Assembly (NCBI RefSeq): GCF_024298765.1
Contig: NZ_CP101210.1
Strand: one strand, 5' to 3'
Origin: Escherichia coli
GTDB lineage: Bacteria; Pseudomonadota; Gammaproteobacteria; Enterobacterales; Enterobacteriaceae
DNA: 64,000 nucleotides
In this document: in pieces, positions 3,278 to 60,133 of the stretch
Numbering within the stretch: position 1 is the first letter of the stretch
Layout of the letters: each line of letters starts with the position of its first letter
Made by a program: the position numbers and the translations under genes
The notes under the pieces: model-generated
What the model was told of the DNA's origin: nothing
The model's database searches: none
The model's input: only the letters and a program-made list of their open reading frames with translations

Positions 3278-4282
3278 TTAACGCGTTGCGGAAGTCGGCG
3301 TCTTCATGTAGCGGAAGAAATCGCTATCCGGGCTCATGACCATCACGTCCTGATTGCCAGAGAAGCTGTTCTCATAAGCACGCAGGCTACGGATAAATGC
3401 GTAGAAGTCCGGATCTTTACTGAATGCATCAGCAAACAGTTTGGCTGCTTCTGCATCGCCTTCACCACGCATGATGCGGCCCTGACGCTCAGCTTCAGCC
3501 AGCGTTCTGGTCACTTCATAGTCGGCAGTCGCGCGCAGTTTTTCCGCTTCTTCCTGACCTTGTGAACGGTGACGACGCGCTACCGCTTCACGCTCGGCGC
3601 GCATACGGTTGTAGATCGCTTCAGACACTTCGGTCGGCAGGTTGATCTGCTTAATACGCACATCGACAACTTCAATACCCAGCGCCGCCATACTGTTCGG
3701 GTTGATGACCGGAACTTTGCCCATCGTCTCAGCCGTTACGCGCTCTGCCGCTTCGGCAATGGCGTTATCTGCTGCCGGGGTAGTAACTTCATCTTCTGTA
3801 CCCGCAGAACCGGAGTTCAGCGCGTCACGTACTTCGAGGGTCAGACGACCACGGGAATCGGTGACGATGTCTTTCACGTCCAGGCGACCAATTTCAGAAC
3901 GCAGACGGTCAGAGAACTTACGTTTCAACAGCACTTCCGCTTGCGAAATGTCGCCACCGCCCGTTGCCAGGTAGTAACGGCTGAAATCGCTGATGCGCCA
4001 TTTGATGTAAGAGTCGACGATCAGGTCTTTCTTCTCTTTGGTCACAAAGCGGTCGGCCTGGTTGTCCATGGTCTGAATACGTGCGTCGAGCATTTTCACC
4101 GTTTCAATGAACGGTATCTTGAAATGCAGACCCGGCTCATAAACCAGAGGTTTGTTGTCATCGTCACGCAGTACCTTACCAAAACGCAGCGTAATACCGC
4201 GCTCACCTTCTTTGACGACAAAGACAGACATGTAAAGCACTACCAGCACGATGATGATAATCGCGATAACTGACTTACGCAT
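3278..4282 (-). CDS. hflC: FtsH protease modulator HflC (SPFH/band-7)
   Basis: ORF track 334 aa; single N-terminal TM plus SPFH domain; overlaps hflK stop by 2 nt as in the hflKC operon. Confidence 0.95.
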   Translation of the reverse strand: MRKSVIAIIIIVLVVLYMSVFVVKEGERGITLRFGKVLRDDDNKPLVYEPGLHFKIPFIETVKMLDARIQTMDNQADRFVTKEKKDLIVDSYIKWRISDFSRYYLATGGGDISQAEVLLKRKFSDRLRSEIGRLDVKDIVTDSRGRLTLEVRDALNSGSAGTEDEVTTPAADNAIAEAAERVTAETMGKVPVINPNSMAALGIEVVDVRIKQINLPTEVSEAIYNRMRAEREAVARRHRSQGQEEAEKLRATADYEVTRTLAEAERQGRIMRGEGDAEAAKLFADAFSKDPDFYAFIRSLRAYENSFSGNQDVMVMSPDSDFFRYMKTPTSATR

Positions 4283-33478: not shown

Positions 33479-34348
33479 ATGGCCATAAGCATCAAGGGTG
33501 TTAATACTGGTGTTATTCGCAAGAGTAATAATTTCATTGCGCTGGCGCTGAAAATAAAAGAGCCTCGCAATAAAGAATCGTTGTTCTTCATGTCTGCGAT
33601 GGAACTGCGCGACCTTTTGATAGCACTGGAAAGCCGTCTGTATCACAAGCATAAACTCGACGCTGAGGCTCGTCTTCAGTATGAGCAGGCGCGCGATAAA
33701 GCCATGAAAAAGATGGCAGAAAACATTCCAGAAATACAGATTGAAGAGCTTAAAAATGCCGATATTAATCGCCGAGTTAATATGCTGGAACTTACCGATA
33801 ATCAGGGCGAAAATCTTAGCTTCGTATTAACGTTACATGACGGTAGCAAATGTGAGTTAGTCGTCAATGAGTTGCAGATTGAAATGCTGGCGCGAGCAAT
33901 CATTCATGCAATTAATAATGCGGAAATGCGTGAACTGGCATTACGTATTACCTCACTGTTAGATTTCCTGCCGTTATACGACGTTGACTGCCAGGACAAT
34001 GGCAATCTGGAATATGACACCTATTCCCAACCGGAATGGAAACATAACTTGTTCAACCATTATCTGGCGGTGCTTTACCGCTTTAAAGATGAAAGTGGCA
34101 AAGAACAATTTAGCGGCGCAGTGGTGAAAACACGTGAAGCAACGCCGGGTAAAGAAGTGGAGGCGATCACTCGCCGAATGCTTGATTTCAGCCCACGACT
34201 GAAAAAACTTGCGGGTGTACCATGTCAGGTCTATGTTCGCACCGTAGCGGCAAATAACGCCCAACCGCTAACCCAGGATCAATGCTTACGCGCGCTGCAT
34301 CACTTACGTGTTCAATCCACCAGCAAAACTGCACCACAGGCGAAATAA
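33479..34348 (+). CDS. yjeJ: Uncharacterised protein YjeJ
   Basis: ORF track 289 aa preceded by very AT-rich upstream region; conserved position. Confidence 0.8.
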   Translation: MAISIKGVNTGVIRKSNNFIALALKIKEPRNKESLFFMSAMELRDLLIALESRLYHKHKLDAEARLQYEQARDKAMKKMAENIPEIQIEELKNADINRRVNMLELTDNQGENLSFVLTLHDGSKCELVVNELQIEMLARAIIHAINNAEMRELALRITSLLDFLPLYDVDCQDNGNLEYDTYSQPEWKHNLFNHYLAVLYRFKDESGKEQFSGAVVKTREATPGKEVEAITRRMLDFSPRLKKLAGVPCQVYVRTVAANNAQPLTQDQCLRALHHLRVQSTSKTAPQAK

Positions 34349-44932: not shown

Positions 44933-45008
44933 GCCCGGATAGCTCAGTCGGTAGAGCAGGGGATTGAAAATCCCCGTGTCCTTGGTTCGATTCCGAGTCC
45001 GGGCACCA
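44933..45008 (+). tRNA. pheU: tRNA-Phe (anticodon GAA)
   Basis: 76 nt GCCCGGATAGCTCAGTCGGTAGAGCAGGGGATTGAAAATCCCCGTGTCCTTGGTTCGATTCCGAGTCCGGGCACCA; pheU assigned from flanking yjdC. Confidence 0.95.
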
Positions 45009-45020
45009 AATTCATATAAA

Positions 45021-45049
45021 CGGACCTCCACGGAGGTCCGTTTTTCGTT
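45021..45049 (+). terminator. Rho-independent terminator after tRNA-Phe
   Basis: CGGACCTCC-ACGG-AGGTCCG hairpin followed by TTTTTCGTTTT. Confidence 0.75.
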
Positions 45050-45205
45050 TTAGGACGCCACGATTTAAGCGTCCTGCCGCCAAATCAATTCTACCGAACT
45101 CAACCAGACTCCCCCCACATCAACCCCATTGTGTGGGTATAATTGCGGGTATACCCCAGTTCGACAGAATTTGTACCCTCTTTAACGCATTCAGAAGGCT
45201 GAACT

Positions 45206-54291: not shown

Positions 54292-56271
54292 TCAGGTGCC
54301 GATTATGCCGCCGTCGGCTTTTACGATAACGACAGTTGAGGAGCGCGGACGACCAGCCTTATCGCCGTCAGGCCAGCTTGATACTGCCGTCGGATGCTGC
54401 GGATCGCTAAGCCCTTCGCTTGGCTCGCCAGGGTGCTGGATGTTAATAAACAGCGTCCGGTTATCCGGAGTGAACGCGATGCCGGTGATTTCGCAGCCGC
54501 GCGGGCCGGTCAGGAAGCGGCGGAACTCATTGGTACCGGGGATCGTCGCCACCATCTGGTTGTTGCCCATGCCTTTGTAATCTTTACTATTGATGGTTGA
54601 TGACGACACGTCGGTCTGGATCCATAGCACGCCGCGGTGATCGAAGCTCAGGCCATCGGCGCTGCCGAATTCCGCCCCCTTCATGCTGCCTTTGGTTTCC
54701 GGTTTGTCCGTATCGGTGCGACCGCCCATCACAAGAATATCCCAGGCAAACTGCAGCGCGGTCGGGTCACCGTTATGCTCCAACCAGTGAATGATGTGGC
54801 CGTAAACGTTTTTGGCGCGCGGGTTGGCCGCATCCACTGGCGCTTTTCCTTCCTTACCGCGATCGCTGTTGTTGGTGAGCGTGCAGTAAACGCTGCCGGC
54901 GTGATATGGATCGACCGCAATCCACTCCGGGCGGTCCATTTTAGTGGCCCCCACGGCGTCTGCCGCCAGACGGGTTTTAATCAACAGGTCGCCCTGGTTT
55001 TCAAACCCTTTACTGGCGTCGAGCCCATTTTGTCCGAACACCAGCGGTAGCCACTCGCCTTTGCCGTCGTCGTTAAATTTCGCCACGTACAGAGTGCCTT
55101 TTTCCAGCAGGTGCATGTTGGCTTTGCGATCCTGCGGGTTGAATTTTCCTTCCGAGACAAATTTATATATGTATTCGAATTTCTGGTCATCGCCCATATA
55201 GACCACAACGCGGTTATCCGGGGCAATTGTCACCGCTGCGCCTTCGTGTTTGATGCGACCAAGCGCGGTGTGCTTGCGCGGCACTGAATGCGGATCGTAT
55301 GGATCGATTTCCACCACCCAGCCGAAGCGGTTCGGCTCGTTCGGCGTGGCGTCGACGCTGAACCTTTTATCCACTTCGTTCCAGCGGTAAGAGTCGTCGC
55401 TCCCGCTGATACCGTAACGTTTTTCCAGCGGGTTCATCTCTGCTTTTTTTACGAAAATATCGGACCAGTTCTCTTCACACGTCAGATAGGTGCCCCACGG
55501 CGTAAATCCGTTGGCACAGTTCTGCATGGTGCCGAGAATGATTTCGCCTTTCGGATCGTCAACTGTTTGCATCAGTGGGTTATGCAGCGCCGGACCGGTG
55601 ATTTTCATCGGCGTGTTAACGGTGATGCGGCGTGCGAAAGATGACGGGCGCACCACTTCCCAGCCCAGGGGCACTTTTTTTACTTCAATGACCGACACGC
55701 CCATCGCGTTCTGGCCTTTAAGAGCTTTATCGGCGCTCCAGTTGGCATCGCCATCTTTAAACAGTAGACCGTTATCGATGTATTCATGGTTTATGGCAAG
55801 CAGGCCGTGATCGGAGCTGTTCCCGCCCTGCGGCAGGCTAAACCACGCCATGCCGTCGTGGTGCATCCCGGCCTGCGCCGCCTGTTCTTCCGTGGTGTTG
55901 CTACCGTCGGTTTTAAAAACCGGCAGATTTCCGGCAATCCCGGTGGCGTCGCCCCATTTGTAGAAGGGCTTCGCGATGTATCCTTCCGGCACGATAACGG
56001 TATCTTCCGTGGAAACCGGCAGGCTGGTGAAACCGAGCGTCGTCGCTTTGCCGAGGTTACCGCTTGCTTTGGAGACCACTTTCGCCAGCGCGTTTTCCTG
56101 TTTCAGCAGAAATGGGAACGCTGCCGCGGCACCGGCGACCGTGCCTGCCTGTAACAGACGGCGGCGTGACAAATAGACTTCCGCCACCTGCGAAAACGCG
56201 CGGTTATCGCTCGGGTTACTGATTTCTTCACTATGCTCACGTTTGAATAAAGTTTTTAACGGTCTGCCCAT
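54292..56271 (-). CDS. PhoX-family (DUF839) alkaline phosphatase-like protein with twin-arginine signal
   Basis: ORF track 659 aa; SRRRLLQAG Tat motif; conserved blocks LAINHEY, GRIKHEGA, MDRPEWIAV, NIQHPGE which I associate with PhoX-type phosphatases. Confidence 0.6.
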   Translation of the reverse strand: MGRPLKTLFKREHSEEISNPSDNRAFSQVAEVYLSRRRLLQAGTVAGAAAAFPFLLKQENALAKVVSKASGNLGKATTLGFTSLPVSTEDTVIVPEGYIAKPFYKWGDATGIAGNLPVFKTDGSNTTEEQAAQAGMHHDGMAWFSLPQGGNSSDHGLLAINHEYIDNGLLFKDGDANWSADKALKGQNAMGVSVIEVKKVPLGWEVVRPSSFARRITVNTPMKITGPALHNPLMQTVDDPKGEIILGTMQNCANGFTPWGTYLTCEENWSDIFVKKAEMNPLEKRYGISGSDDSYRWNEVDKRFSVDATPNEPNRFGWVVEIDPYDPHSVPRKHTALGRIKHEGAAVTIAPDNRVVVYMGDDQKFEYIYKFVSEGKFNPQDRKANMHLLEKGTLYVAKFNDDGKGEWLPLVFGQNGLDASKGFENQGDLLIKTRLAADAVGATKMDRPEWIAVDPYHAGSVYCTLTNNSDRGKEGKAPVDAANPRAKNVYGHIIHWLEHNGDPTALQFAWDILVMGGRTDTDKPETKGSMKGAEFGSADGLSFDHRGVLWIQTDVSSSTINSKDYKGMGNNQMVATIPGTNEFRRFLTGPRGCEITGIAFTPDNRTLFINIQHPGEPSEGLSDPQHPTAVSSWPDGDKAGRPRSSTVVIVKADGGIIGT

Positions 56272-56876
56272 TGCGGTTTCCTTTCAAAAAATCGATTTCA
56301 AGGGGAATCATTTTTATGCACGTGAGTCTACGGAAAGATTGTTACGGAAATATAACAATTGTCATAAAAAACCGGCGATAAAATCATCTATGGTCGGGAC
56401 GCGGTTTCAGGTATGATGTGAGGCTAGAATTCTGAACGCTCTCTTTTGTTGAGCATATATGGACGTCCCAGATGAGGCAAGTACTGGTTCGATGCGGTTT
56501 GCGACCATATATCCGGCGTCGTTAGTAGGTTCAATGACCTGCGCCATGATGTTATCCGGGCCCTATTTCCTAATCACTACACCGGTATTTGATTACCCAG
56601 GTCAACTTCAGACTGTTACAGGGGCGGTAGCCGTTATCTCATCAGTGAATGTAAACTCAGTTAAAAATATTTTCTATAACTTACTGTTTTTCTTTAATTC
56701 ATCACAACGGCCTTCTGCATATTAAAATCAATACTATCGCTCAAAACACGCCAGATGATTCTTGTCAGCTTATTCGCCAGCGCACCAGTGGTTTTCAGGA
56801 ACCCTCGACGGGCTTCCATCCTTTGCAGACAAATACTCAGACTGTCAGTGAGCTTTTTCACACAGCGCATTACAGA

Positions 56877-57288
56877 CTGAAATGGCACACTGAATTTGGT
56901 CACCTGAACAGAGGTGATATGCTCACCTCAGAACAAGACTGGTGCCCTAATGAAAAAAAGAAATTTTAGCGCAGAGTTTAAACGCTAATCCGCCCAACTG
57001 GTTGTTGACCAGAACTATACGGTGGCAGATGCCGCCAAAGCTATGGATATCGGCCTTTCCACAATGACAAGATGGGTCAAACAACTGCGTGATGAGCGTC
57101 AGGGCAAAACACTAAAAGCCTCTCCGATGACACCAGAACAAATCGAAATACGTGAGCTGAGGAAAAAGCTACAACGCATTGAAATGGAGAATGAAATATT
57201 AAAAAGGCTACTGCACTCTTGATGTCAGCCTCCCTGAACAGTTCTCTATAATAGGGAAACTCAGGACACGTTATCCTTTGGTCACTCT
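56877..57288 (+). mobile_element. IS911-like (IS3 family) remnant: left end plus orfA carrying a nonsense codon; orfB absent
   Basis: Left end TGAAATGGCACACTGAATTTGG..; orfA reads MKKRNFSAEFKR* then ..[39 protein letters not shown]; element ends abruptly near 57288. Confidence 0.7.
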
Positions 57289-58160
57289 CTGTGTAGTGGA
57301 TCGGTAATTCAGGACACCTCATTTTCACTGTTAATGTTAAAAAGTGAAAATGAGGTGATGCATGATCAAAACTCGTCGGACTAAACGTACCTTTTCCCCG
57401 GAGTTCAAGCTTGAAGCTATCGAACAGGTGGTTAAATACCAGCGTGATGTCAGAGAAGTCGCGCTGGCACTCGAGCTCAACCCTGACCATTTGCGTAAAT
57501 AGATACGGTTGTATAAGCAGGAACTTCAGGGTATTGAGCCCGCTGGTAATGCTATTACTCCTGAACAACGCTAAATTAAGCAGCTTAAAGCGCAGATAAA
57601 GCGCCCTGAGATGGAAAAAGAAATACTAAAGCAGGCTGCCGTGCTGATGAGCGAAATCCCCGGGGAAACTGTCGCGCTAATCACACAGCTGAAAGCAAAG
57701 TGGCCAGTGCGGGTTCTTTGTCATTTATTCGGTATTCACCGTAGCATTTATTACGCGCAGGTGAAGCGTCCTGTTAATGTGCAAAGAATTGAATTACGAA
57801 GTCGGGTGAGGGCTGTCCATGCTCTCAGTCGTGGCGCAGTCGGTAGCCGGGCAATCAGTCAGATGTTGCGCCATAGTGGCGTTGATGCAGGCCGGTGGCT
57901 GGCACGACGACTGATGCGGGAATGCGGGCTGACAAGTCGACAGCCAGTTAAACATCACTACCGGGTAAACGAAGACAAAAGTCCGCCATTGCCAAATTTA
58001 CTGAACCGGCAATTTCACCCCGCCGCACCAAACCGCGTCTGGTGCGGCAACATCAGTTTTATTCGCCTGCAGGACAAATGGTGTTATCTCGCACTCGTTG
58101 TTGATTTATATTCACGGCGGATTATCGGTTCAGCCCTCTCATTAACCGCTGATGCTGAGT
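57289..58160 (+). mobile_element. Degenerate IS3-family element: orfA with two in-frame stops, orfB truncated by IS66 insertion
   Basis: orfA from ATG 57362 MIKTRRTKRTFSPEFKLEAIEQV.. with TAG and TAA stops; orfB fragment (ORF 57611..58165) ..RVWCGNISFIRLQDKWCYLALVVDLYSRRIIG.. ends where IS66 end begins. Confidence 0.6.
57316..57357 (+). promoter_or_regulatory. Perfect 15-bp stem hairpin overlapping the ribosome-binding site of the IS3-family orfA
   Basis: CACCTCATTTTCACT-(12 nt)-AGTGAAAATGAGGTG; the 3' arm contains GAGGTG 5 nt upstream of ATG at 57362. Confidence 0.5.
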
Positions 58161-58198
58161 TGTAAGCGTACAGCGAGGGCCGTATTGACGGGGATGTG

Positions 58199-59736
58199 TT
58201 ATTCAGCTGGCAGTGCTATGCGCCACGGAAGCAGTTCGCTGACCCGGTTGACCGGCCAGTCTGCTATGACGCCAAGCACATGGCGAAGGTAACTTTCTGG
58301 ATCCACGTCATTCAGTTTGCACGTCCCTATCAGGCTGTACAGTAGCGCTCCCCGCTCACCACCATGGCCAGAGCCGAAGAACAGGAAGTTTTTACGACCC
58401 AGACTTACCGCCCGCAGGGCATTTTCAGCGATGTTGTTGTCGATTTCCACCCAGCCATCGTTCGCATAGTACGTCAGTGCCGGCCACTGGTTAAGTGCGT
58501 ACGCGAACGCCTTCGCCAACTCTGAGTGTCGCGACAGGGTCTTCATCTTTTCACGCAACCAGCTTTCCAGGGATTTCAACAGCGGTTTCGTTTTTCGCTG
58601 ACGTTCAGCAAGCCGCTGCTCTGCCGGCATTCCCCTTATATCCGCCTCTATGGCGTACAACTGACCGATCTGCTCCAGGGCTTCTTCCGTCAGTGCTGAC
58701 GGGATGCGGACGTGCACATCGTGGATCTTTCGGCGGGCATGAGCCCAGCAGGCAGCTTCCGTTATCCCACCATTGCGATACAGCTCGTTGAACCCGGCGT
58801 ACGCATCCGCTTGCAGCACACCGCTGAAGCAAGCAAGATGAGTCTGCGGATGGATGCCTTTTCTGTCCGGGCTGTAAGCGAACCACACTGCAGGTGCCAA
58901 CGCTGACCCGGCATTGCGGTCATCACGAACATACGCCCACAACCGCCCGGTCTTCGTCTTCTTATTACCCGGCATCAGTACCTGGACCGGGGTATCATCG
59001 GCATGGAGTTTGCCGTCAGTCATGACATAGCCATGAAGCGCCTCTTCCAGCGGAGACAGCAGCCGGCAGCATGCATCCACCCAGCCCGACAGCAGTGAAC
59101 GGCTCAGCTCCACACCTTGCCGGCCGTATATTTCTGACTGGCGATACAGCGGGGTGTGCTCTGCATACTTCGAGGTCAGCACGCGGGCCAGCAGCCCCGG
59201 TCCGGCGATACCCCGCTCGATGGGCCGCGAAGGTGCAGGTGCCTGCACGATGGCATCGCACTGAGTACAGGCATGTTTTTCCCGTACCGTCCGGATAACC
59301 CGGAAGGCGCTACGCATCAACTCCAGCTGTTCGGCGGTATCCTCGCCCAGATAGCTCAGTGAACCGCCGCAGTTCGGGCAGCACGGCGCCGCAGGCAACA
59401 GTCGCTTTTCGTCACGGGGTAGTGATTCAGGGAACGGCTTACGGATGCGGGTCTGACGCAACGGACGCTGTACTGCGGGTCATACACCCTACCAGTCAGC
59501 GTATCGCTCTCTTTCTGAAGCCGGTTCAGATCGGCTTCCATTTGTGCGATACGGCGGGAGACTTTTTCGGAACGACTGCCGAAGTTCATCCGGCGGAGTT
59601 TATCCAGCTGCGCCTGCAGATGGTCTATTTCGCGCTCCCGGTTGCTCAGCTTTTCCTGCAGGGCGTGGATCAGCGCTTCCTGTTCGGCCAGGCGCTGTTT
59701 CAGCAGGAAGATGTCGTCAGAAGAGATGTCGTTCAT
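58199..59736 (-). pseudogene. IS66-family TnpC transposase, split by a frameshift
   Basis: N-terminal 126-aa ORF (59356..59736) and 420-aa ORF (58199..59461) overlap in different frames; together about 530 aa. Confidence 0.7.
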
Positions 59737-59785
59737 AAGCCCGTATTTTACCGGGCTTATTCTGTGACAACCAGGATAAAGAGAT

Positions 59786-60133
59786 TTACAGCATGGTCAG
59801 GGAGGTCAGCAGCCGCTTAGGCTGTCGCCAGTCGATACCTTCCAGCAGCATCGCCAGCTGCGCCTGTGTAAGGAACACTTTGCCATCACGGGCTGACGGC
59901 CAGGCGAAGCGCCCACGCTCCAGCCGTTTGGTCAGGAGGCACAGTCCGTCACCGGTGGACCACAGCAGTTTAACCTGACTGCCGCTGCGGCCCCGGAAAA
60001 TGAAAACATGGCCGGACATGGGATCGTCTTTCAGCGCCGTCTGTACTTTCGCAGCCAGGCCGTTGAAGCCATTTCTCATATCGGTGATACCGGCAACCAG
60101 CCAAATTTTGGTCCCGGAAGGTAACGGGATCAT
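59786..60133 (-). CDS. IS66-family TnpB (orfB)
   Basis: ORF track 115 aa MIPLPSGTKIWLVAGITDMRNGFNGLAAKVQ.., characteristic IS66 orfB. Confidence 0.8.
   Translation of the reverse strand: MIPLPSGTKIWLVAGITDMRNGFNGLAAKVQTALKDDPMSGHVFIFRGRSGSQVKLLWSTGDGLCLLTKRLERGRFAWPSARDGKVFLTQAQLAMLLEGIDWRQPKRLLTSLTML

Follow-up and report, generated by a model that had tools for sequence, protein, structure and literature searches.

A predicted Tat-exported PhoX-family phosphatase carried on a pheU island of Escherichia coli, with an apparent Cronobacter-like origin

The DNA that we analysed is a 64,000-nucleotide stretch of the E. coli contig NZ_CP101210.1 (assembly GCF_024298765.1), hereafter the window. 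An earlier note on this stretch had placed at positions 54292-56271 a 659-residue protein containing the motif SRRRLLQAG, without giving a strand; the open reading frame listing of the window confirms a 659-aa frame at exactly these coordinates, on the minus strand, with the motif at residues 35-43. The gene is already catalogued and is ordinary in kind: in E. coli strain 135 the same 1,980-bp coding sequence has the PGAP product name 'PhoX family protein', and the RefSeq name for this exact protein is "PhoX family phosphatase". We call it phoX, the coding sequence (54292..56271, minus strand, 659 aa including the signal peptide) being defined jointly by the reading frame, the Pfam family PF05787, the structure 3ZWU and the RefSeq description 'PhoX family protein'. 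A Shine-Dalgarno sequence, AAGGA, can be read directly at 56279..56283 (minus strand), 8 nt before the start codon, and its AGGAA is invariant across orthologous loci. At the protein level the 34 N-terminal residues are conserved from Enterobacteriaceae to Neisseriaceae, and together these two features support the annotated start codon. In the literature library that was searched, nothing relevant to E. coli PhoX as island cargo was found.

The gene lies downstream of a tRNA-Phe gene and an integrase, on a genomic island. The attachment end of this island spans 44933..46468 on the plus strand and consists of the tRNA-Phe gene (pheU, 44933-45008, identified by ARAGORN) followed by an annotated tyrosine integrase (45206-46468); the core genes dsbD and dicD flank this region. 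In K-12 the same site is empty, pheU being followed by the yjdQ relic and cadC, which agrees with the description of phoX as island cargo. The far end of the pheU island lies beyond the window. The earlier note had also described phoX as flanked by transposase remnants, and this holds on one side. Upstream, at 56.4-60 kb, we observed insertion sequence debris (56694..60133) comprising a putative IS110-like relic, IS3-family fragments, a frameshifted ISEc8 (IS66 family) and tnpB, as judged from how PGAP annotates strain 135 (99.5% identical) and from Pfam matches to HTH_Tnp_1, HTH_21 and rve. Downstream there is instead an unrelated pseudogene fragment of an iron ABC transporter permease (PGAP; 53738..54196, minus strand), an incidental neighbour outside the phoX unit, and beyond it an outer membrane protein gene and then a PEtN transferase gene. 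We considered an ancestral linkage between an iron transporter and an iron enzyme and rejected it, as tblastx found no homolog of the permease beside 80 native phoX loci and the permease is absent at the Cronobacter locus. In Enterobacter the native phoX stands beside a TonB receptor gene and permease genes, in Franconibacter beside GH15 and in Cronobacter beside inositol genes and metNIQ; because these neighbours vary by genus, there is no conserved operon from which a substrate could be inferred.

The resemblance to PhoX (DUF839) phosphatases that the earlier note had proposed is borne out over the full length of the protein. The match to Pfam PF05787 (PhoX; COG3211) scores 554 bits (gathering score 24; E=6e-166) and covers profile positions 2-515 of 515, and the match to P. 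fluorescens PhoX (3ZWU; E=9e-168 over residues 70-658) has 49% identity over 569 aligned positions. From the Pfam envelope and the 3ZWU alignment we place the catalytic beta-propeller domain at residues 80-615 (54427..56034, minus strand). In 81 other PhoX sequences 152 alignment columns are fixed, and the window protein deviates at none of them. Hence neither a missing PhoX profile match nor a loss of the phosphatase residues, the two outcomes that the note had named as speaking against its assignment, was encountered. By alignment, C252, E343 and D446/R447 are the equivalents of Cys179, Glu273 and Asp384/Arg385 in 3ZWU, and the invariant acidic residues E266/E267 and D361/D362 are also present. 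We take Cys179 to be the thiolate ligand, with Glu273 and Arg385 as further active-site residues of PhoX. The window protein shares its family, its fold and all 152 invariant columns with the P. fluorescens enzyme (PDB 3ZWU, 4A9V, 4A9X, 4ALF, 4AMF), although about half of the residues differ and it has four cysteines where the 3ZWU chain has seven. In the Pfam search only PF05787 and TAT_signal matched at E<=0.01, with no match to the alkaline phosphatase superfamily (PhoA) or to PhoD. By these comparisons the window protein groups with the structurally and biochemically characterised PhoX branch and not with a distant DUF839 paralog.

The predicted Tat signal peptide occupies residues 1-63 (56083..56271, minus strand), as delimited by TIGR01409, the motif and hydropathy, with an inferred cleavage site. 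Within it, the motif S35-RRRLL40 (56152-56169, minus strand) follows a 34-aa n-region; the h-region (residues 39-56) is rich in Ala and Gly and only mildly hydrophobic (hydropathy peak 1.8), and K57 lies in the c-region. Cleavage is predicted in the sequence ALA61-63|K64, probably after Ala63. A chaperone-binding n-region under strong conservation was considered and given up, since conservation is 0.64 in the n-region and 0.62 in the h-region. A few positions in the n-region are conserved.

The transcription signals of phoX are less apparent. The earlier note had proposed a motif scan for a Pho box, and at consensus stringency this gave none: a strict scan with CTGTCATAWAWCTGTCAY, allowing at most three mismatches, returned 0 matches in the whole window. 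A scan for sigma-70 promoters was uninformative (five sites against 3.7 expected). A box becomes visible only against orthologous loci. For this we aligned 20 promoter sequences, namely those of 18 native Enterobacteriaceae loci, the window allele and a plasmid allele. The native loci contain a conserved upstream block, TGTTATAAAnnTGTAAC, followed by 10 bp and TAnACT, while the rest of the upstream sequence is unalignable. In the window this block corresponds to a Pho-box-like element, TTGTTAT-ATTT-CCGTAAC, in the -35 position (56341..56358, minus strand), and to a putative -10 hexamer, TAGACT, 10 bp downstream of it in the conserved TAnACT columns (56325..56330, minus strand); by comparison with the native loci the two together lie at -87 to -55. 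The element has five mismatches to the E. coli consensus, which is why the strict scan misses it. More distant phoX relatives have near-canonical Pho boxes in the same place. At the other end of the gene, 25 nt past the stop codon, lies an intrinsic terminator (54241..54266, minus strand), a hairpin CAGGC-GCGGTTA-GCCTG followed by TGTTTTTAT; the hairpin was found by scan at 54250-54266 and is kept in Cronobacter and in the plasmid allele.

Half-site 2 of the Pho-box-like element reads CTGTAAC in Cronobacter and CCGTAAC in the window, the difference being a derived T>C change in the half-site core at position 56346. The position is polymorphic among E. coli carriers, strains 26561 and E06 retaining the T. 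The change may weaken control of phoX by PhoB.

The earlier note had placed PhoX outside the E. coli K-12 core gene set, and its distribution agrees: among 5,426 complete genomes of E. coli, 98 (roughly 2%) have a full-length phoX, and the pheU site of K-12 is empty. In 94 genomes the frame is intact at an identity of at least 99%, with no frameshifts or stops. Of the E. coli carriers listed, around half or more come from poultry, a proportion uncorrected for clonality. Relics of phoX, 112 bp in length, are found in hundreds of E. coli replicons, and we conclude from these that the gene has often been lost in this species.

The closest counterparts of the gene are chromosomal. Five Cronobacter species (malonaticus, sakazakii, turicensis, universalis and dublinensis) fall in the same 90% protein cluster as the window PhoX, with 95.9% amino acid and 92.3% nucleotide identity and the same promoter block, ribosome binding site and terminator. 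In a blastn comparison of the window with Cronobacter malonaticus, the sole stretch homologous to the C. malonaticus chromosome is 54243..56371 (minus strand; 92% nucleotide identity), which contains promoter, gene and terminator. The Cronobacter gene is chromosomal and lies between inositol-catabolism/MFS genes and a metNIQ-like ABC system, with an intact Pho box (CTGTAAC) and a GC3 of 0.78; the E. coli copy, in contrast, is a 2.1-kb insert amid insertion sequence debris, with CCGTAAC and a GC3 of 0.67. The limits of the homology thus indicate that phoX reached E. coli as a cassette of ~2.1 kb from a Cronobacter-like chromosome. Plasmids of E. coli and E. albertii (e.g. pEA8_2, IncI-gamma/K1) carry a further phoX with 94% nucleotide identity to the window copy. 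The plasmid and the window copy share the cassette and, downstream of it, some 50 bp that are missing in Cronobacter, which suggests that the plasmid and island genes descend from one mobilised ancestor. The plasmid copy sits between IS21 and astA/EAST1, and its upstream junction cuts half-site 1 of the Pho box and leaves half-site 2 intact.

E. coli already has a functional analogue in PhoA, a periplasmic, Pho-regulated phosphomonoesterase that is exported by Sec, belongs to the core genome and is unrelated to PhoX in fold and family. PhoA works with Zn2/Mg as cofactor and through a phosphoserine intermediate (PMC4223295). Enzymes of the PhoX family are described as Tat-exported Fe3+/Ca2+ phosphomonoesterases (PMC4223295, PMC3197622, PMC5454538). 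By analogy with these, the PhoX precursor would fold and take up an Fe3+/Ca2+ cofactor in the cytoplasm; the folded protein would leave via TatABC through its S-R-R-R-L-L signal peptide, probably cut after Ala63, and in the periplasm would free phosphate from phosphomonoesters of many kinds. Transcription is most likely driven by the gene's own promoter, in which the Pho-box-like element would take the place of a -35 hexamer, and PhoB would turn phoX on in phosphate starvation. Now found on plasmids and on the pheU island, phoX would represent a second, zinc-independent alkaline phosphatase beside the core PhoA. As an overall explanation, an alkaline phosphomonoesterase of the PhoX family, exported by Tat, with a promoter of its own and a Cronobacter-like origin, appears to us very probable.

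Three other readings deserve consideration. It is unlikely, in our view, that E. coli carries phoX as a passenger that is silent or in decay, intact by recent descent and not usefully expressed because of a damaged Pho box and surroundings of pseudogenes and insertion sequence debris, although several observations lean that way: the derived T>C change affects the core of half-site 2, a 70-bp promoter window is identical in 65 of the 94 carriers, the plasmid allele has lost half-site 1 at its junction, the surrounding genes are pseudogenes and relics of phoX are widespread. In addition, when dN/dS is divided roughly, by hand, among three taxa, the branches associated with E. coli receive the higher values (about 0.1-0.24, compared with about 0.02 for that of Cronobacter). 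The pairwise dN/dS is nevertheless 0.058 in the comparison with Cronobacter and 0.127 in that with the plasmid allele, from which we conclude that phoX is under purifying selection; with dS up to 0.34, the copies are too diverged for an unconstrained gene to have stayed intact. Against mere passage there are also the 94 genomes without a frameshift or stop, the retention of every invariant residue, and the fact that -10 hexamer, ribosome binding site and terminator have all been kept.

We see very little prospect that the protein is a PF05787/DUF839 paralog with another main activity, for example of the diesterase, nucleotidase or sulfatase type. PF05787 and K07093 have been reported to catch probable paralogs beyond true PhoX, and one PhoX of Alteromonas showed weak monoesterase activity together with others (PMC12594817); the window protein, however, aligns with P. 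fluorescens PhoX from one end to the other at the identity given above, is 60-65% identical to the products of Pasteurellaceae PhoX loci and keeps all invariant columns, while the Pho boxes in orthologous promoters are as expected of a phosphate-scavenging enzyme. Export by Sec instead of Tat, or an uncleaved signal that leaves PhoX anchored in the membrane, seems equally improbable. The n-region is unusually long, and the Pfam TAT_signal score (16.7) is below its gathering threshold (22.7), but NCBIfam TIGR01409 scores above its cutoff (17.8 vs 16.7), and the consensus S-R-R-x-L-L, the Ala/Gly-rich h-region of low hydrophobicity and the basic residue in the c-region are hallmarks of Tat signals. 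With the ALA|K site, these features uphold the twin-arginine signal read from the sequence originally, and members of the PhoX family have been found by experiment to depend on Tat (PMC3197622, PMC4223295).

If PhoX is indeed exported and active, some 2% of the complete genomes of E. coli would encode, besides the Zn-dependent PhoA, a second alkaline phosphatase that by homology is Fe/Ca-dependent and Tat-exported. This would be of practical relevance in phoA-null E. coli backgrounds and for alkaline phosphatase reporters in wild isolates. The cassette is also a tidy case of a candidate Pho-regulon gene that moved with its own Pho-box-like element. The importance of these findings is limited, and the understanding of PhoX enzymes and of genomic islands is unchanged by them.

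PhoX of Campylobacter jejuni, translocated by Tat and induced through a two-component system that senses phosphate, has a modest role in chicken colonisation (PMC3197622). It is a distant family member, controlled by PhosS/PhosR and not PhoB/PhoR, and is the sole alkaline phosphatase of that organism, whereas E. coli also has PhoA. For E. coli, we speculate, with little confidence, that the T>C change at 56346 is a functional regulatory polymorphism that loosens or retunes PhoB control, with PhoX benefiting poultry-associated strains; were this so, the enzyme could give poultry E. coli an advantage where the host withholds zinc and organic phosphate is nevertheless available. The natural T and C variants of the Pho box constitute a ready-made pair bearing on the effect of a single core change on control by PhoB.

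On all the sequence criteria that we tested, the protein encoded on the minus strand at 54292–56271 belongs to the PhoX family. The open reading frame of 659 residues lies where an earlier note, made from the DNA alone, had placed it, and the twin-arginine motif read there, SRRRLLQAG, occupies residues 35–43. The PhoX/DUF839 affiliation proposed in the same note was borne out by a full-length match to PF05787 (Alkaline phosphatase PhoX; E=6e-166, 554 bits, gathering score 24, profile positions 2–515 of 515), and the Pfam search returned no match to the profiles of PhoA (alkaline-phosphatase superfamily) or PhoD. Among solved structures, PhoX of Pseudomonas fluorescens (3ZWU and its related entries) matches best (E=9e-168, query residues 70–658). 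Because PF05787 also gathers probable paralogs (PMC12594817), we tested closeness to the characterised PhoX branch directly, with an alignment of the E. coli protein, the 3ZWU chain and 80 PhoX translations from the genomes of other species. Among these 81 other sequences we observed 152 invariant columns, at none of which the E. coli protein deviates; its identity to the crystallised P. fluorescens enzyme is 49% (280 of 569 positions), and its closest relative is the PhoX of Cronobacter. C252, E343 and R447 are among the invariant residues and align with 3ZWU chain positions 179, 273 and 385; in 2014 Yong et al. reportedly described these as a thiolate ligand of iron, a glutamate that bridges metals and an arginine that binds phosphate, respectively. 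PhoA of E. coli is a functional parallel of PhoX, but its fold is unrelated and its metal requirement and export route are different. We found no literature on this PhoX in E. coli, and we infer its activity, Tat dependence and regulation there from sequence.

Two observations lend the start codon credibility: AAGGA, a Shine-Dalgarno sequence, is found 8 nt 5' of it, and the 34 residues N-terminal to the twin arginines show protein-level conservation in homologs ranging from Enterobacteriaceae to Neisseriaceae. PGAP calls the same 1,980-bp CDS in strain 135, an E. coli genome 99.5% identical over window positions 34292–60371. The product begins MGRPLKTLFKREHSEE…, and the predicted anatomy of its signal is typical of Tat substrates: the motif S35-R-R-R-L-L40, an h-region that is rich in Ala and Gly and modestly hydrophobic (Kyte-Doolittle peak of 1.82 over 13 residues), a c-region with a lysine (K57), and ALA at 61–63, which predicts cleavage before K64. 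The NCBIfam Tat signal model TIGR01409 scores 17.8 (cutoff 16.7), and the Pfam TAT_signal model scores 16.7, under its threshold of 22.7. PhoX enzymes are Tat-exported phosphomonoesterases with two Fe3+, three Ca2+ and a bridging oxo group, and the proposed benefit of Tat export for them is iron insertion in the cytoplasm (PMC4223295; PMC3197622; PMC5454538). We also observed that the n-region is unusually long (residues 1–34, window 56170–56271) and that conservation across Enterobacteriaceae to Neisseriaceae is strong at M1, P4, L5, H13, I17-S18-N19, S21, N23 and F26-S27; the mean conservation of the n-region, 0.64, is not above that of the h-region, and that it might be recognised by a chaperone or during cofactor loading is speculative.

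That phoX is accessory and carried on an island, as had been supposed, agrees with its surroundings. In K-12 MG1655, pheU is followed only by a yjdQ relic and then cadC; here, an island starts at this tRNA-Phe gene (44933–45008), which adjoins dsbD and dicD. The island carries, in order, an integrase and, adjoining it, a 1,171-aa helicase and PLD-nuclease protein (46920–50435, plus strand), an EptA-like phosphoethanolamine transferase of 499 aa (Sulfatase and EptA_B_N domains) and a small outer-membrane beta-barrel protein of 246 aa (OMP_b-brl), which together span 50544–52965 on the minus strand and both appear intact, an iron-ABC permease pseudogene fragment, phoX, and IS3/IS66 debris and more. 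The suggestion that phoX is flanked by transposase remnants thus applies to its upstream side, where the IS3/IS66 debris lies, but not to its downstream side, where the permease fragment lies. Just upstream of the phoX cassette, a 69-aa ORF (56694–56903, minus strand) looks by eye like the C-terminus of an IS110-type transposase, has no Pfam match and is probably more IS debris. The 1,171-aa protein matches, over its full length, MkoC, the protein of the single-gene anti-phage system Mokosh type II (PADLOC PDLC03924, 1694 bits, profile positions 1–1135 of 1136), with which its Pfam domains AAA_11, AAA_12 and PLDc_2 agree, and the 246-aa protein is an eight-stranded-type outer-membrane beta-barrel.

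Full-length phoX is present in 98 of 5,426 complete E. coli genomes (94 at at least 99% identity), always annotated as 'PhoX family protein' or 'PhoX family phosphatase'. The exact protein, found on 591 contigs, is entered as 'MULTISPECIES: PhoX family phosphatase [Escherichia]', and the RefSeq name is already correct. The earlier note was right about an ordinary accessory gene that is already catalogued; what we add to it is small: the lineage of the donor, the minimal boundaries of the cassette and the polymorphism in the Pho box. Poultry isolates make up about half or more of the listed carriers of the full-length gene region, window 54193–56420 (roughly 15 of 25, 8 of 12 and 14 of 28 in three listings), and about 30% of the listed genomes with only a relic of the gene; this skew, in raw counts that may include clonal relatives, is only suggestive.

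Native chromosomal phoX genes are common in other Enterobacteriaceae, with identities of 80–81% in Franconibacter, 77–79% in Siccibacter, Enterobacter and Leclercia, and 76% in Klebsiella. PhoX proteins of five Cronobacter species fall into the same 90% cluster as the E. coli protein (representative 96% identical), and phoX of the window and of the C. malonaticus chromosome share 92.3% nucleotide and 95.9% amino acid identity. Homology to the latter is limited to 56371–54243, that is, 100 bp of promoter, the gene and a terminator hairpin. An allele 94% identical lies between IS elements on nine PLSDB plasmids (seven from E. coli, two from E. albertii). Since about 50 bp past the terminator are common to the island and plasmid alleles and absent in Cronobacter, both alleles probably descend from one mobilised copy. 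GC3 declines from 0.78 in Cronobacter to 0.71 on the plasmid and 0.67 on the island, which would fit amelioration towards the composition of E. coli or an unsampled donor of lower GC. No native phoX has a counterpart of the permease fragment next to it, which makes the adjacency of the two on the island incidental.

Pairwise dN/dS (Nei-Gojobori) is 0.058 for island versus Cronobacter, 0.062 for plasmid versus Cronobacter and 0.127 for island versus plasmid, with dS up to 0.34 among the three, which indicates purifying selection on phoX. A rough three-taxon partition of these values by hand suggests that constraint is weaker on the E. coli-associated branches (about 0.1–0.24) than on the Cronobacter branch (about 0.02). 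A 112-bp relic encoding PhoX residues 288–325 (equivalent to window 55298–55409; 87% amino acid and 90–95% nucleotide identity) occurs in roughly 360 other E. coli replicons that lack the full gene, among them many IncF plasmids and the chromosomes of BL21(DE3) and E. coli B. phoX has therefore also been lost in E. coli, which counts against long-term retention. On one such plasmid the relic, at 4001–4112, has a RelE/ParE module on one side and an autotransporter on the other; its RefSeq label is 'alkaline phosphatase'.

The Pho-box scan that had been proposed found no match to CTGTCATAWAWCTGTCAY within 3 mismatches in the whole window. When the 300 bp preceding phoX were scanned in those loci of other species that extend far enough upstream, the best match in native Enterobacteriaceae loci almost always lay 66–84 bp (mostly 69–84) before the start codon, on the gene strand, in the form nTGTTATAAAnnTGTAAC; more distant relatives have near-canonical boxes, e.g. 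CTGTCATAAAACTGTCAT, at similar or somewhat larger distances. When 20 Enterobacteriaceae upstream regions were aligned, the only alignable block, the RBS aside, was a Pho-box element, 10 bp and TAnACT, which is the arrangement of the phoA promoter of E. coli, where a Pho box takes the place of the -35 hexamer. In the window, the corresponding minus-strand elements are TTGTTAT-ATTT-CCGTAAC (56358–56341) and the predicted -10 hexamer TAGACT (56330–56325). Because the second half-site in Cronobacter is CTGTAAC, the C at 56346 (minus strand) is derived. This position, in the core of half-site 2, is a single-base polymorphism among E. coli carriers: the window, strain 135 and APEC E12049 have CCGTAAC, and strains 26561 and E06, Cronobacter and the plasmid allele have the ancestral CTGTAAC. 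The plasmid allele has kept half-site 2 and lost half-site 1 at its junction. Given the conserved element, PhoB control is predicted to be likely for the ancestral promoter form, and, given the derived and polymorphic base, uncertain for the allele in the window. An exact match to the window across a 70-bp promoter stretch was seen in 65 of 94 carriers, and the base at 56346 is linked to a second difference, G/A, some 12 bp upstream of it.
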